From Candidatus Firestoneibacteriota bacterium (GTDB lineage: Bacteria > Oederibacteriota > D2-FULL-39-29 > JBDRBU01), in assembly GCA_043822305.1 (NCBI GenBank), contig JBDRBU010000102.1:1-30642 (forward strand): a stretch of DNA of 30,642 bases, written 5' to 3'. The first letter of the stretch is position 1, and every line of letters starts with the position of its first letter. Shown here piece by piece: positions 18,001-30,000 of the stretch. A program made the position numbers.

Positions 18001-21000
18001 GAAAAGTGTAGTCGGAGTGTTAACCCCAATTAAAAAGACCGCTAAAGACATATCGGGTAAATAGTTGGCGAACCACAATAGATTAAAACATCATAAAAAC
18101 CTGAAGAATCATTATTCTTATATCAAATGAAAATTTGTTTTTTTTGATAAAGGAGGAAGAGAAAATGGCTATTAACACGGTAAAAGTACCAAAGGAAATG
18201 GAACTGCTATTTATTAAAGCGCAGGAATATGTGAGTAAGTATTTTGCGAATAGAGTTGAGGACACTACAAAAGGAGAAATTTTTATTGGTGGTGAGAGAT
18301 ACATTTTAGTCAGGGCAGCTTCTATGTCCGTTGAATTTTTAGATTTTATTAAAAGTATCTATCCGGGGTTAGAGAAAAGTGAATCGGTGAAGGTATCTTC
18401 AAGTATTCTTTTTGATATTGCTCATGCTATTGGTAGGCTTGACCTGCCCCCAAATATTATACCACTTTTTAGTTGAGACTTAAACATAAATTTACCTTGT
18501 CTGGTAATGGGTCAGTTATCGAGGGTAGTCGCAGGTTTTAACCTGCGTACAAATAACGCAACCTGAAGGTTGCGACTACCAAAAGCGACAATCACTGACC
18601 GATTACCTTGAAAATTCCTCTTGATAATATTATACTTATATAGAGGAGGGTTAGCCCTAACTGGTAAGGCACCTGACTTGAAATCAGAAATTAAGCATAT
18701 GACGCTTCCCTTATTTTTAAAGAAAGATCAACAAACTAAAGAATTTTTCTAGAATTTGTTCATTCTCGCATTTGATTACATCTCATCAGATTTAACTGCA
18801 TTTTGGTCACGATTTGGGCAAATTTGATAAGCACCTATCTTAAGAAGTTTTTAGGCTGGTGCTTTTTTTATTTTGTAAAAAGATTTTTGGAGAATATGTG
18901 AAATTTCTTGTCAATTTACGATTGTTAATGTATACTATACACAGAAACAGGAGGGAAATTATGCATTTCCCGGAAAGGAAAAAGATACTAAATAGGTTTG
19001 CTAAAATAAGAAAGGATTAGATAATAATAGAACCCACTTCTAAGGAGTGGGTTTTTGTTTATAGTAATAATAGGGAAGAAGATGAAAAAAGTTAAATTAA
19101 TATTAATATCAGTTTTTATGCTTTTGATTGTATTTTCGTGTAAGAATTCACAACAGCATAGTGTTAATGACAATAAAGCAATAAAAAGTAAGAACGAAAA
19201 AATAAATAAAAATAAAGGAAATAATCTTTCAGAATATCAACATCAGTATGATTTAGGTTATAATTATTTAATAAAGAAGGAATATGATAAAGCTATATAT
19301 ACCTTGACTAAAGCAATAGGATTATACCCAACCAATATAGCTTATTATGATAGAGGCAATGCTTATTATTATAAAGGAGAAATTGATAAGGCAATAGATG
19401 ACTTTAATAAAAGTATAGAAATAGAAAAAAACTTTTATCCACCTTTTATAGGTCGTGGCAATGCTTATTTTTGTAAAGGACAATATGATAAGGCAATATC
19501 AGATTATACTTTCGTAACACATTGTATTGATGATGAAATGATTTATTTTGCACGGGGTATTGCATATAAAAGAATAGGAAAGAATGAAAAAGTGGGACAA
19601 GACATTAAAAAGGCTAAAGAGATAAGTATGGGTTTTTATAGTTCAATGGAAGGGGAAGTTTATGTTAAAAAGAATATACAAATAAAGGATCATATTGGGT
19701 TTTGTAGCCGTGGACATTATTATGCATATATAAAAGAATATGATAAAGCTATTGCCGATTTTAACAAAGCGATAGAACTACTCCCAAATTACACCTATTG
19801 TTATTTTCTTAGAGGTATAGCATATGAAGGAAAAGGGGAAAAAGAGAAGGCAGAAAAAGATTTTAAAAAAGTAGAAGAACTAAAGTTTAATAAACAAAAT
19901 AAACTTCCAAAGCCTGATGTTCAAAATAAATGTTCTTGTGAATGGCGAGAATTTGAGAAGATTCTAAAAGAAAAGATTAATCAAATTGGGCCAGAAATAT
20001 TTGAAGAAAAGATAGGTAATCGCTTAAGCAGTTATTTTACACCTTTTGAAATAAATTGTGTAAAAGAGTTTAAATCTAAAGTTGAGGAATTACTTTTAAA
20101 TTATTTACAAAAACAATCTGATAATGCATATGGTGCAATATATATTCTGGCTTATATTAAGTCGCGCCGTGCTTTACCATTACTTCGTCAGCAATTGTTG
20201 AAGGATCGATTTTTTTATGGTTGGGAGGGATATGACTATAAGGACGAAAAGGCGTATCTTTCTGATAATCAATATCCTCATCACTTAGCATATATTGCAG
20301 CTGTTGAAGAAATTACTGGACTTTCAATTGTAAAAGCTATAAATCTTTCACAAGAAGAACGAGAAAACCTAGAAAAAGATGCATTACTTGCAAAACCAGA
20401 TGTTTCAAGTACGAAATATTATTGTGCAAAGTGGTTATTACTAAAACTAACATCAAAGAAATAAACCTATTATTTTTGAGAAAAATACTTTATTCTAATT
20501 CTTTGAAGTGGTAAGGTAAGGGAAAGAAGATGAGAAAACTGATATATTTTGTAATAGTAGTAGTTTTTGTGGTTGGAGTAATTCCAACTAATGCTTTTTC
20601 TGAAGTAATAGTAGAAAAACAATATTATTCTACATCTGAAATAAAAGTGAGAGCTCTGATATTCTATAGAGATGGAAAAGAAATTGCAAGAAAAGTATTT
20701 GATATAGATGGTAACATTAAAGAAGTTATAGGAAAAATTCCTGATGGTATAGCAATAGAATATCGTAAGAATGGAAAAATAAGAGAAGAAAGGAGTTATA
20801 AAAATGGAGAATTAAACGGATTGAGTAAACAATATGATATTAATGGAAATAAAACAATAGAAGGAATTTTCAAAGATGGGAAGTTAGAATTAACGAGAAA
20901 ATATGATACGGAAGGGAAACCAAGACTTGAAAGTAATTATAAAAACAATAGACTTAATGGTGCAACAAAAAAATATTACGATAACGGAAAGGTTATTGAG

Positions 21001-27000: not shown

Positions 27001-30000
27001 TTTTAATGGATATGAAGAAAATTTTACTAAGAGAAGTTATTAAAGATGTAGGGACTAGATGGGGGTATGGTGAAAACAATTTTAATATGGTATGTTATAT
27101 TATTGAAAAACTTGAAGGGATAAAAGGGTTAGAAAAATTTGCAGAAGAATATGGTGAAAAGGTTTACAAAGCATATCTTGTATTGGTAACTAAGTTGTAT
27201 GAATTACAAATGTACAGAGAATCTCTTGAATCTTATCAAAAAGGACTTAAAGTAATTCCAACTCAAAATTTCATTCGGGCACAGATATCTGATTTAGCAG
27301 CAAAATCCGCAGAAAGTATTAAGGATAAAGAGACTGCCTTTAATGCATATAAAGAGGCATTCTTTTCACATCCAAGTTTGAAAAGGCTTCTTGCTTTAAG
27401 AAAAAGCAGTAATGAATTATGCAAGGCTAACATAATGGAAGATGTTGTTGATTTTTTGGAAAAACATCAATGGAAGGGAAGTTTTATTGATAATTCCAAG
27501 ACATTATTAATACAATCTTATATTCTTACAGAAAAATATGATAAGATGTGGGAAGTTACTAAAAAGGAGGAACCTTTGGGATGGTCTTTTGGTGATAATT
27601 CACAGGCAATAGCTGTTCCATTTTTACTAATGTCTTGTGTAAGGAAAATGTCGTTAAAGAGCAATTCTGCTATTAAAAAAGTTTGGGATTGGAATAGGTT
27701 TGATGATGATAAAAGTGACTTCAAGAATATTGTTGAAAGAGAAATTCTATCTAAGGATATTTCATTAGAAGAAAGAATAAAACAAGTAGAATGGGTAAAG
27801 ATAACTATTGAGAAACGGATTGATGCTATAGTGTCTAATAAACATCGTGGAAGTTATGACAAAGCGGCATTACTTCTATTTGGATGCACAGAGACTTTAA
27901 ATATGCTTGATAAATCTGATGAGGCTCAATCTTTTTTTAATAAAATAAAGTTACGATATAATCATTACAGTGCTTTTCAAAGAGAGATAAAGTCTTTACA
28001 AATATGATGAATTTTGTTTTGTAAAAATCTTTATACCTTGCACATTATTATTTACTATAATCAAGAACGGTAAAGCATTTTCAATTGTTTCCCATGTCAC
28101 TTGATATGACAGTCGGTTTTTTAAATTTATTAAAGCAGAACGTCCTTGTCTGCTTTCCATATAAATCCCGGTTAACTTTTTAAAAATGTATGTTTCTATA
28201 AATTCTATAGCAACGGTTTTTAAATCCTTATTTTGTTTTGCCTCTTTAAGATAATCCTTGGTTATAGAAACCTTTTTAGTCTCATCTTATCAATTATTGT
28301 AATAATGTCTGGCAAACTCTTTCCAACCAACCAGATACAAATCAATACTATAGTAAATACACTAACATAAGAAGTTGTTTTTAGAATATTTACAATATCT
28401 GAAATGAACTTAAAAAAATCCATGATTATTGTCTCCTTTCCCAATAAGTATATAACATTTTATGGAAATCTTCGATTTCTCTTTTTATCCACGATTAAAA
28501 ATTTAGATTTTGGCCGTAACCCCTGTGTTATCTGCAGTCGAATGTCGATGACTTTTGAAATCCCGCAATAATTCATCCGATTTTCTCTTTATATACTGTA
28601 TCTGTATTTCGAGTGATAAGTCTTTTGTCTCCTTGTATTGTTTATCCCGTATCTTCCTAACCATCTCAATTGCTTTTACTGACATAGGTTGTTACCTCCC
28701 TTGGAGAATAGATTGATATTATCTTATACCCTTTCTCAAGATTCACAGCATTAAACTGCTGAATTTTATTAAAATTCACGACATGCTGAAAATTCCAACT
28801 TACCAATATGTCTATATTTGCTACAGATGCTAGAGCAATATGCATAGCATCATTTTTATAGTTTTGTGTCAGGATACTATGAGTAAGATAAGATTCGGCA
28901 AGATCTATAACTTCTGTGTTTAAATCAAGAAATTCATGTTCACAATCTCGAAATTCTCCATATATCTTTTTAACCTCATCAGGAGCATCTTTAATCTCTG
29001 CATCCGTAAGAGAAGAAAGAACTAAAGAAAATATACCCATTCTGAAATCTGAAAGAAGTCCTTCAGACCATTCTTTAAATTCAAGGTCACAACAACCACC
29101 AATTACTGAAGTATCAACATAAATTCTAGTTCTTTTCATAGTATTTCTTTTTTAACTGGAATCCGTCATATCAAAACCAACTAACCTATTTCTATTATAA
29201 TTATACCATAAAAGATGTTTAAGTCAAGAAAAATATTTTGAAATACAGCGAATTTTAAAAAATGATAGCATTTTAAAAATTATTATGCTATAACGATAAA
29301 ATAAGGTTGGAGGGTTAGCCCTAACTGGTAAGGCACCTGACTTGAAATCAATTAAGATGGATTAACCGCTTCTCTTATTTCTACAGTTAAATCCTTGTAT
29401 CACAATGATAAACCTCAGATTGAACCATTTTCAGAGTTAATCAGATTTGGTCTCTTTTTGCCTGTTTTATTACACAGTTTTAGCACAGTTTTGGACTTGA
29501 AATTTTTAAACAAGAAATATGTTGAGAAGTTTTTATAGTAGCGGTTTTTAACTTAAATGGATAGAGCAGAGGTTTCCTAAACCTCGCGCTGGAGGTTCAA
29601 TTCCGCTCGGGCCCACCAAAAAAAAGATTGTATATTCTGAAAAATCCTTTGAAATTCAAAAGAATGTTAATTTTGCGATTTTTCTCACCGGAAAAACATT
29701 TCACACCATTTCACACTTTTTCACCCTTTTTGACATAAATGTAGTCCCAATTTGGTCCCACTTTTTCCGGAACAAGAAGCACCACCTTAAGAAGTTTTAT
29801 AGGTGCTTTTGAGTTTTTAGGTTAAATTGTTTAGGTTATATCACAGAAACTGTAGAATTACTTCAAGGATTCATAGCAGCAATTTAAAGGAAAATAATTC
29901 ACTACAACAAAAACAAAATATTTCCTTGACAAAACGAACTTTTGAGGTATAATAAGATAGAAGCTTGCTCAAGTTTAATGCAGAGAAATGATGTAAGTCT

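Follow-up and report, generated by a model that had tools for sequence, protein, structure and literature searches.

Tandem tRNA-Ser(UGA) 5' fragments in a Candidatus Firestoneibacteriota genome and changes of tRNA polarity among related integrases

Island finders and textbook models of integration into tRNA genes take it that the element supplies the tRNA's 3' half and that the host keeps the promoter. What, then, has left three copies of the 5' half of tRNA-Ser(UGA) in tandem on one contig of a Candidatus Firestoneibacteriota bacterium (GCA_043822305.1)? The window, the whole stretch of DNA analyzed here, is contig JBDRBU010000102.1 (C102; 30,642 nt). Each of its three fragments is 100% identical to the single intact tRNA-Ser(UGA) gene of the assembly, which has no Ser-CGA gene; one exact 42-nt match would be expected by chance about 2e-19 times. 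The intact gene lies on another contig, C9, which is not joined to C102 in the assembly, and each of the two breaks off in its own, different ISL3 piece. The survey's finding on this genome was that islands enter upstream of tRNA genes, that all displaced fragments are 5' halves, and that this polarity is made by an orientation flip. As a whole, the data are in our judgment quite likely to be explained by tandem integrative elements at the sole tRNA-Ser(UGA) gene, with an attP that carries the 5' half, in an integrase family that switches its layout throughout.

The features of the array are collected in Table 1. The left arm of island 1 matches, at 19 of 20 positions, an arm that lies within the 3' end of the integrase gene on C9, and the GC content of this island is 27.6%, against 31.6% for the genome. 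The promoter consensus in front of fragment 1 is probably the promoter left behind with the displaced 5' half, and the hairpin behind the left arm is a putative terminator against read-through from the tRNA promoter. No right arm matching the left arm of island 2 was found upstream of fragment 3. The left arm behind fragment 3 does not match the C9 arm (12/20), and the left end of this third island is 69.5% identical over 105 nt to that of the tRNA-Thr island on contig C71. An island-end sequence said to be shared upstream of fragment 2 and of the intact Ser gene is indeed identical there (25/25 nt), but the same motif also occurs downstream of fragment 1 (24/25). The tRNA-Arg(CCU) remnant has an acceptor tail of the relatives' type, unlike the host's, and is read as the junction of a sister element of the 3' mode or of the whole-tRNA kind. 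A synteny search for empty sites had only other families as nearest relatives: the upstream neighbors of the Ser, Thr, and Arg genes vary among them, tRNA-Ser(UGA) follows a different gene, no empty-site context for fragment 1 was found, and none of 11 relative loci has a tRNA behind DUF4321.

Table 1. Features of the tRNA-Ser(UGA) array in the window (positions of JBDRBU010000102.1)
Feature	Position	Strand	Remarks
Sigma70-type promoter consensus	18608..18636	+	10/12; directly upstream of fragment 1; consensus only, 3 sites vs 1.9 in shuffles
tRNA-Ser(UGA) 5' fragment 1	18645..18687	+	tRNA positions 1-43; attL of island 1
Island 1 left arm-like tandem repeat	18801..18825	+	~122 nt beyond anticodon
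Hairpin, then T run	18829..18864	+	motif common to several left ends; no call by terminator scan
Island 1 cargo	19055..22337	+	TPR protein, MORN-repeat protein, 378-aa ORF without family; no integrase
Island 1 right arm-like repeat	22768..22792	+	ends 105 nt upstream of fragment 2 anticodon; identical to C9 arm
tRNA-Ser(UGA) 5' fragment 2	22859..22900	+	tRNA positions 1-42; island 1/island 2 junction
Island 2 left arm-like repeat	23016..23035	+	different sequence
Island 2 cargo	23156..29139	.	DUF433/DUF5615 pair, AEP-TOTE primase-helicase, 572-aa ORF, 157-aa ORF (minus strand); no integrase
tRNA-Ser(UGA) 5' fragment 3	29309..29350	+	tRNA positions 1-42
Island 3 left arm-like repeat	29473..29492	+	
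tRNA-Arg(CCU) remnant, 3' half + CCA	29549..29618	+	tRNA positions 8-74 at 94%; CCA ends at 29618
Island left end	29628..29815	+	homologous to end behind Arg 5' fragment on C72, 85.5% over 69 nt; displaced 42 nt
Arm repeat within this left end	29744-29761		
ISL3-like transposase fragment	29999..30642	-	below curated cut-off; contig break here

All seven tRNA 5' fragments of the survey's finding were found again on their contigs. Besides the three Ser fragments, they comprise Thr-CGU at C71:9354 (tRNA positions 1 to 38) and C19:3052 (positions 4 to 39, 94%), Arg-CCU at C72:1368, and one at C94:290 that matches tRNA-Phe over positions 1 to 25. The last reads on into a CGT anticodon loop, which makes it a 5' half of the Thr(CGU) type, of which the assembly has no intact copy. 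The C71 fragment, placed about 4 kb upstream of the intact gene by the survey, lies 3,972 nt upstream of it on the same strand; C19 and C71 share a unique 141-nt overlap, so that both Thr fragments belong to one tandem array. Each fragment is followed by a homologous island end with arm-like repeats, which lie 121 to 131 nt past the loop in six of the seven left ends by script and in the same alignment columns in the seventh. The fragments end 2 to 9 nt beyond the middle base of the anticodon, here as in relatives. That displaced fragments are 5' halves thus holds for seven of eight, the exception being the Arg remnant, a 3' half beside a sister island end. In addition, the 3' end of tRNA-Gly has a 15/16 match at about C24:13494 (control, 0 hits for 42 queries), which could be a chance match or the degraded rest of a 3' fragment.

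The integrase gene (C9:18242-19330) is whole, and its stop lies 42 nt before the intact tRNA-Ser, just in front of it as had been reported. The protein matches PF00589 at 147 bits, has the R, H-x-x-R, H, and Y motifs, scores under every XerA/C/D and integron cut-off, and is about 28 to 33% identical to the best annotated phage matches. It is the sole member of its integrase family in the genome; island 1, island 2, and the C71 island have no integrase. Upstream of it lies a gene that we read from its sequence as xis-like, cut by the ISL3 end. A 204-aa recombinase on C94 was rejected as the integrase of the C94 island, being only 26% identical to the C9 enzyme and having no tRNA downstream. Also rejected was a 3' island downstream on C9, where MazG, HNH, and Schlafen genes stand between tRNA-Ser and a cyclase gene: no 3' fragment was found there.

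We then compared loci with homologous integrases, distinguishing layout A (5' half, co-directional with the integrase), layout B (3' half, convergent), layout C (3' half, co-directional), and layout W (both halves). Among 80 loci on genome contigs, 31 had a co-directional and 16 a convergent tRNA, 32 had none, and 1 was truncated; only A and B were detected. The survey held the 5' polarity to be that of the family's majority. This is so in the near clade, the closest homologues by bit score (28/30 co-directional), but across the phylum set of 54, in a locus sample biased toward an A-type query, 24 loci with a co-directional intact tRNA (1 of them whole-tRNA) stand against 27 in the 3' mode, and 14 of the 54 integrases are followed by a co-directional 3' fragment (layout C). 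The entry of islands upstream, with supply of the tRNA 5' half, is borne out far beyond the three loci known before: in a genome-wide test a 5' fragment was present for 18 of the 21 A-labelled phylum loci, counts that are not independent because several of the genomes are congeners, and in 12 it lay upstream on the same contig at 6.5 to 57 kb. Searches across genomes with a non-cognate tRNA query give lower bounds and were left out of this figure. One genome has a 5' fragment 31 kb upstream of the same Ser-UGA gene, far fragments also occur at L050, L062, L073, and L058, and two of the 21 loci (Gly in G001, Leu in G081) lack both a fragment and a second copy. The targets are tRNAs for Ser, Thr, Arg, Lys, Gly, Met, Glu, and Pro across several lineages. 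The identity blocks end at tRNA positions 37 to 45, and of 22 located pairs, 15 have the integrase-end arm repeat again behind the far fragment. In convergent loci, we found a 3' fragment in six cases and no 5' fragment within the DNA fetched. In rows with a strong arm, the arm-to-loop distance falls into clusters of 85 to 90, 99 to 101, and 104 to 111 nt in layouts A (28/29), B (18/19), and C (2/2), and the integrase ORF runs past the loop, with its extreme C terminus only, in 6 of 48 A-type rows.

That polarity differs between sister enzymes, as had been proposed, is seen in pairs of different mode that are 68% (L058/L065), 74% (L227/L226), and 77% (L187/L238) identical, while the arm-to-anticodon spacing is kept in steps of about 10 nt. 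On a quick tree that gave long-branch warnings, the 5'/3' label changes 9 times and the orientation 5 times, and a single 5' clade is rejected (p-AU 1.5e-45). One genome, G101, has two identical intact tRNA-Phe genes and an element with both halves (layout W): one copy has host DNA upstream and the element's left end, the other the integrase and host DNA downstream. W is known from this genome, where its two ends lie on different contigs; five other genomes of the same search have at most one intact tRNA-Phe. Relics of the lost half (z > 2) are not general, occurring at 2 of 14 C loci, 3 of 21 A loci, and 0 of 6 in our genome; the candidates are L240 (z 3.9), L274 (4.1), L208 (3.0), L258 (2.9), and L265 (2.7). 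A Phe relic first spotted by eye had a z of -0.2.

The survey's explanation of polarity change, in which the att block is simply inverted with respect to the integrase, is incomplete, and as the whole account we consider it unlikely. Inversion would fit the orientation changes on the tree, the detection of A and B alone on genome contigs, and the pair L058 and L065, sisters at 100 SH-aLRT that both use tRNA-Lys(CUU), the first co-directional and with its 5' fragment located, the second convergent. However, an inversion retains the carried half and so by itself cannot convert a 5' element to the 3' mode; sister switches at Thr and Phe occurred without inversion, and none of 134 loci had the plain reverse form of A, in which a convergent 5' fragment would stand behind the integrase. 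Layout C contradicts inversion as the only cause, and inversion stands as one contributing step: in Asp elements it interconverts the two 3' layouts with the carried half unchanged.

Two further accounts were weighed. It is improbable that host tRNA genes are broken by the elements without being rebuilt, a separate tRNA gene standing in for them after the manner of tRNA-dependent lysogeny, or that host lineage rather than integrase clade imposes the 5' mode. The intact tRNAs directly behind integrases, the two intact copies in G101, and the predominance of 5' halves in our genome could be taken in this sense, but we found no orphan anticodon-loop 3' halves alongside the 5' halves in this genome, and the intact Thr gene is followed by host-type genes in 11 of 12 relatives. 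Against an effect of host lineage, three genomes of the same order (G010, G004, G002) hold 3' fragments of tRNA-Ser(UGA), and in G080 sister 5' and 3' islands flank one tRNA-Thr. Still less credible is that the fragments are artefacts of metagenome assembly or strain mixture, or rearrangement leftovers unrelated to the C9 integrase. The assembly does have 125 contigs, with the Ser array and the intact gene on separate ones, and the neighborhood is rearranged relative to other families; yet each fragment is contig-internal, between unique flanks, and has a left end of its own that is homologous yet diverged, and the same layout occurs in single contigs of near-complete genomes, including the one-contig G015.

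The evidence that the islands also supply the promoter of the rebuilt tRNA, as the survey held, differs between targets. For Thr a consensus match points to this; for Ser it was not seen, no consensus promoter being present within 400 nt upstream of the C9 tRNA-Ser, and an 11/12 match lies upstream of the C9 integrase. Scored across the family with weights based on the E. coli consensus, the median promoter z was 0.56 for A (48 rows), 0.25 for C (14), and 0.69 for the integrase side of B (23). As the positive control failed (-0.23 for 20 host promoters), no weight is given to the nominal p of 0.04 for A against C.

For the tandem integrative elements that we favor, the sequences suggest a lambda-type tyrosine integrase, presumably active, that would recombine at the 7-nt anticodon loop with arm sites on both sides, the tRNA 5' half of attP sitting between the integrase 3' end and the loop. 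Because such an attP carries the 5' half, every integration would strand the previous 5' half upstream and rebuild the gene downstream, and the oldest island would be the one farthest from the working gene. Island 1, with both C9-type arms and no integrase, could move in trans. Across the family the arm-to-loop spacing stays fixed while the carried half and its orientation vary. Exchange between the 5' and 3' modes would most likely pass through capture of the other half (W), perhaps as an obligatory route, followed by decay of one half, and inversion interconverts B and C. More tentatively, and somewhat short of an even chance in our estimation, the tRNA half of attP may be a freely switching state: a whole-tRNA attP would duplicate the host gene, either half would then be lost with the helical-turn spacing kept, and in the 5' state the sole Ser-UGA gene would be transcribed from the integrase promoter, tying host viability to the element end.

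The 5' mode itself is known. In the literature covered, which left out most subscription papers, we found neither this clade nor polarity changes from sister to sister nor an intermediate with the whole tRNA described. What is described here is a broad bacterial clade that is enriched for the 5' mode and has switched repeatedly, probably by way of a whole-tRNA attP. It is widespread among little-studied phyla, and the otherwise rare mode is common in it. Opposite-mode sisters and a natural both-halves form, the likely intermediate, make the origin of att polarity directly testable; the clade also provides a way for tRNA genes to be duplicated and for an occupied tRNA to accept a second insertion on its upstream side, and it bears on integrase-less cassettes and on prediction tools that look downstream only.

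Several known systems share parts of this picture. In pTN3-like archaeal integrases attB is the tRNA 5' half family-wide, and it is the integrase promoter that drives the rebuilt tRNA (PMC8371274; PMC5495485). The att half is shared, but their gene is split by att, whereas the C9 ORF is whole and ends before the tRNA, and the C9 integrase has arm-like repeats and a clade that switches mode. In actinobacteriophage tRNA-dependent lysogeny (PMC10865867) the element likewise keeps an essential tRNA, and sister phages differ in tRNA restoration; those phages use a core of about 10 bp, do not rebuild the gene, and carry their tRNA away from attP, unlike the 38- to 43-nt blocks, the gene rebuilt at the junction, and the lack of orphan 3' halves seen here. 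Clade I.d at K. pneumoniae arg2 is an integrase subclade integrating upstream of the tRNA, with two strains that have islands on both sides of one tRNA (10.1101/2020.11.02.365908); compared by description, it uses one tRNA and a proposed D-loop site, whereas our blocks run through the anticodon loop of many tRNAs. Tycheposons and similar elements (10.1101/2020.12.28.424599) occur in different hosts and are likened here by layout and cargo: small cargo elements between partial tRNAs, newer ones displacing older ones, with a primase-helicase as in island 2; the passages available to us do not state polarity per element. The 5'-fragment islands of Islander (PMC4383910) share a tRNA with a displaced upstream 5' fragment, a tyrosine integrase, a site that here too is probably centered on the anticodon, and tandem arrays. 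A co-oriented 5' fragment upstream on one replicon, which Islander looks for, was found for Thr on C71 and at 12 relative loci; Islander also has each tandem island encode an integrase, which islands 1 and 2 and the C71 island, having none of their own, do not, so it would filter out such islands. Its main text does not tie 5' islands to integrase clades, and they made up 159 of 3,919 islands (4%), unlike the 5' mode here, which accounts for about half of the tRNA-linked loci and nearly all of the nearest homologues.

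The tRNA genes of the genome were compared with their own genome by BLAST, and the fragments found are given in the table with neighboring features. A scan for exact tRNA matches of at least 15 nt gave 14 places, namely these eight fragments and six internal matches of 15-18 nt. Terminal tRNA 16-mers with one mismatch allowed gave six 5' matches and one 3' match (tRNA-Gly, C24), which from its sequence is possibly a decayed 3' att fragment; the control gave 0 matches with 42 queries. By these three scans, seven of the eight clear fragments are 5' halves, so that the survey's claim that all displaced fragments are 5' halves stands except for the Arg-CCU remnant.

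Positions of tRNA fragments and neighboring features (C102 is the contig of the window)
Feature	Contig	Position	Remarks
tRNA-Ser(UGA) 5' fragments 1, 2, and 3	C102	18645, 22859, 29309	42-43 nt, exact; BLAST
Thr-CGU fragments	C71, C19		BLAST
Arg-CCU fragment	C72		BLAST
Further fragment	C94		BLAST
Arg-CCU remnant	C102	29555-29612	BLAST
Match to tRNA-Gly(GCC) 3' end	C24	about 13494-13509	15/16 identity; intergenic gap
Palindromic repeat element, 105 nt	C102, C117	18504-18608, 25804-25908	copies identical
Truncated 113-aa ORF	C102	18135-18476	adjoins palindromic element
DUF433/DUF5615 pair	C102	23156-23772	island 2
157-aa ORF	C102	28666-29139	island 2; no family match
Left-end hairpin motif, solitary copy	C106	about 2277-2314	more perfect; no tRNA fragment nearby
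L005 island	C94	290-14880	behind orphan Thr(CGU)-type fragment
L001 genes	C9	14788-17950	between tRNA-Ser(UGA) and cyclase gene

The left ends (island ends 3' of the tRNA fragment) behind all seven 5' fragments can be aligned. A script placed the start of a tandem arm-like repeat, a putative integrase arm site, 121-131 nt beyond the anticodon in six of them, and the seventh has an arm-like repeat in the same alignment columns. Further copies of the repeat behind fragment 1 stand ahead of fragment 2 and within the C9 integrase gene at its 3' end, 105 and 108 nt upstream of the anticodon loop, respectively, with 19/20 matches each (comparison sites, only 9-12/20). Since the same repeat stands at both its ends and in the C9 integrase, island 1 (4.2 kb, between fragments 1 and 2; a TPR protein, a MORN protein, and a protein without known identity) is a closed cassette without an integrase. 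Island 2 (6.4 kb, between fragments 2 and 3) carries DUF433/DUF5615 genes and an AEP-TOTE primase-helicase; its left arm differs in sequence, and a right arm was not recognizable. Its DUF433/DUF5615 pair and 157-aa ORF presumably resemble PIN-type toxin-antitoxin parts.

The C9 protein, a tyrosine recombinase with intact motifs, is the sole member of its integrase family in the genome. The ends of C102 and C9 lie in different ISL3 pieces, and therefore this join is not closed. The overlap of C19 and C71 is unique and gives a second tandem array, at tRNA-Thr; C72 and C21 terminate in opposite ends of an element that reads in sequence as IS3-like, in compatible orientation, which is one of two possible pairings. 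The L005 island encodes HicB, an R.Pab1-type endonuclease, an N6 methylase, and, by eye, additional methylase-like ORFs; an intact cognate tRNA for its fragment is absent from the assembly. The MazG-like, HNH, and Schlafen-group-3 helicase genes of L001, a slot without genes in relatives, are probably a defense cassette, for which a tRNA 3' fragment was not found.

The left end behind the Arg-CCU remnant is 85.5% identical over 69 nt to that behind the C72 Arg 5' fragment, displaced by 42 nt that consist of a 3' half and a short A run. The acceptor tail of the remnant is of the relatives' type, unlike the host gene. We read the remnant as the putative junction of a sister element carrying the 3' half. 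In the lambda arm/core model, and with a helical repeat of 10.5 nt, the shift equals four helical turns and would keep the arm phasing.

Fragment 1 retains a promoter (10/12 consensus), at the -35 box of which the palindromic element stops. The intact Thr gene has a consensus promoter within the island end, resembling the relatives' promoter. Intact tRNA-Ser(UGA) is the only Ser-UGA gene in the genome, where no Ser-CGA gene was found; its co-transcription with the integrase appears plausible, as a consensus promoter was not found within 400 nt and the C9 integrase has one matching 11/12.

Eighty loci from genome contigs comprised 31 of layout A (integrase followed by a co-directional tRNA or 5' fragment), 16 of layout B (convergent; three of them placed here by eye on the basis of 3' fragments), 32 without a tRNA, and 1 truncated. 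Within the phylum, 114 integrase matches were listed in 38 of 99 genomes; 54 non-redundant loci, taken from 29 loci that the search returned plus 40 regions picked for long contigs, were labeled A (24), B (13), C (co-directional 3' fragment; 14), or none (3). Genome-wide searches with the own tRNA covered 21 of the 24 A-labeled loci (L174, L179, and L181 left out): 18 have a 5' fragment, which in 12 of them lies 6.5-57 kb upstream on the same strand of the same contig; one locus shows an additional intact tRNA gene instead, and the remaining two show neither. Of 22 located pairs, 15 repeat the integrase-end arm behind the far fragment (two further pairs were not located); controls upstream of fragments scored 9-14, with a single exception of 19. 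Six convergent loci have 3' fragments, and a single tRNA has islands on both sides at L050, at L062, and in G080. The 5'-half mode reported by the survey is thus borne out by this genome and by the 18 phylum loci, and there is little doubt that such islands are real. Some of the genomes tested are congeners, and the sampling favors the A-type query. Layout A accounts for 28 of the 30 nearest homologues, versus 159 of 3,919 islands with 5' fragments in Islander (PMC4383910); the mode is quite probably enriched in the near clade.

Three arrangements were seen besides. In G007 (C12 and C244; L273/L172), two differing regions precede tRNA-Ser(CGA). In one, the tRNA follows an integrase; the other, 2.2 kb long, opens with a 5' fragment together with the same arm repeat. 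The alternatives are variants between strains, a tandem arrangement, or another whole-gene case. At L044 (G003, C307), tandem units of ~45 nt, each holding the tRNA's first 11 nt, lie upstream of tRNA-Ser(UGA) at the contig end. The integrase frame runs through the tRNA 5' half beyond the loop in 6 of 48 A-type rows (L047, L049, L052, L066, L181, and L233) and in none of the 37 rows of layout B or C, so that the integrated and excised elements would encode different integrase C termini.

A quick tree of 84 rows, built after excluding every row shorter than 300 aa and 28 full-length ones lacking a tRNA, requires the 5'/3' label to change 11 times, or 9 times without the row carrying both halves (layout W) and four doubtful rows; one single 5' clade was rejected (p-AU of 1.5e-45). 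Well-supported sisters differ in layout: Lys A/B (68% identical), Thr A/C (74%), and Phe W/C (77%). The survey had ascribed the 5' mode to an orientation flip. As the sole cause this is rejected. Asp elements occur in layouts B and C, and so show inversion with the same half kept. Arm-to-loop distances form groups of 85-90, 99-101, and 104-111 nt in every layout. Another, proposed route runs through a whole-tRNA attP. G101 has two identical intact tRNA-Phe genes, one with host DNA upstream and the element left end, the other with the integrase and a host gene downstream; arm spacing is like that of the C-type sister (76 versus 77), and this element is read as the intermediate that holds both halves. 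Only a few loci show a clear decayed relic of the half that was lost, and overall such relics are absent, so that the direction and generality of the route are tentative. We give even chances that switching passes through a whole-tRNA attP.

In the available parts of the literature, no account was found of this clade, of switching between sisters, or of an intermediate carrying a whole tRNA, and the Islander and Klebsiella supplementary tables could place known 5' islands here. Literature on known systems includes 10.1101/2020.11.02.365908, PMC10865867, 10.1101/2020.12.28.424599, PMC8138268, PMC5495485, PMC9897764, and PMC13626063. The att of pTN3-like integrases is a tRNA 5' half, and 5'-half att sites are described, citing Williams 2002, as used "seldom" in bacteria (both in PMC8371274). 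The 5' mode, its clade-level use, and two-sided occupancy of one tRNA are already published.
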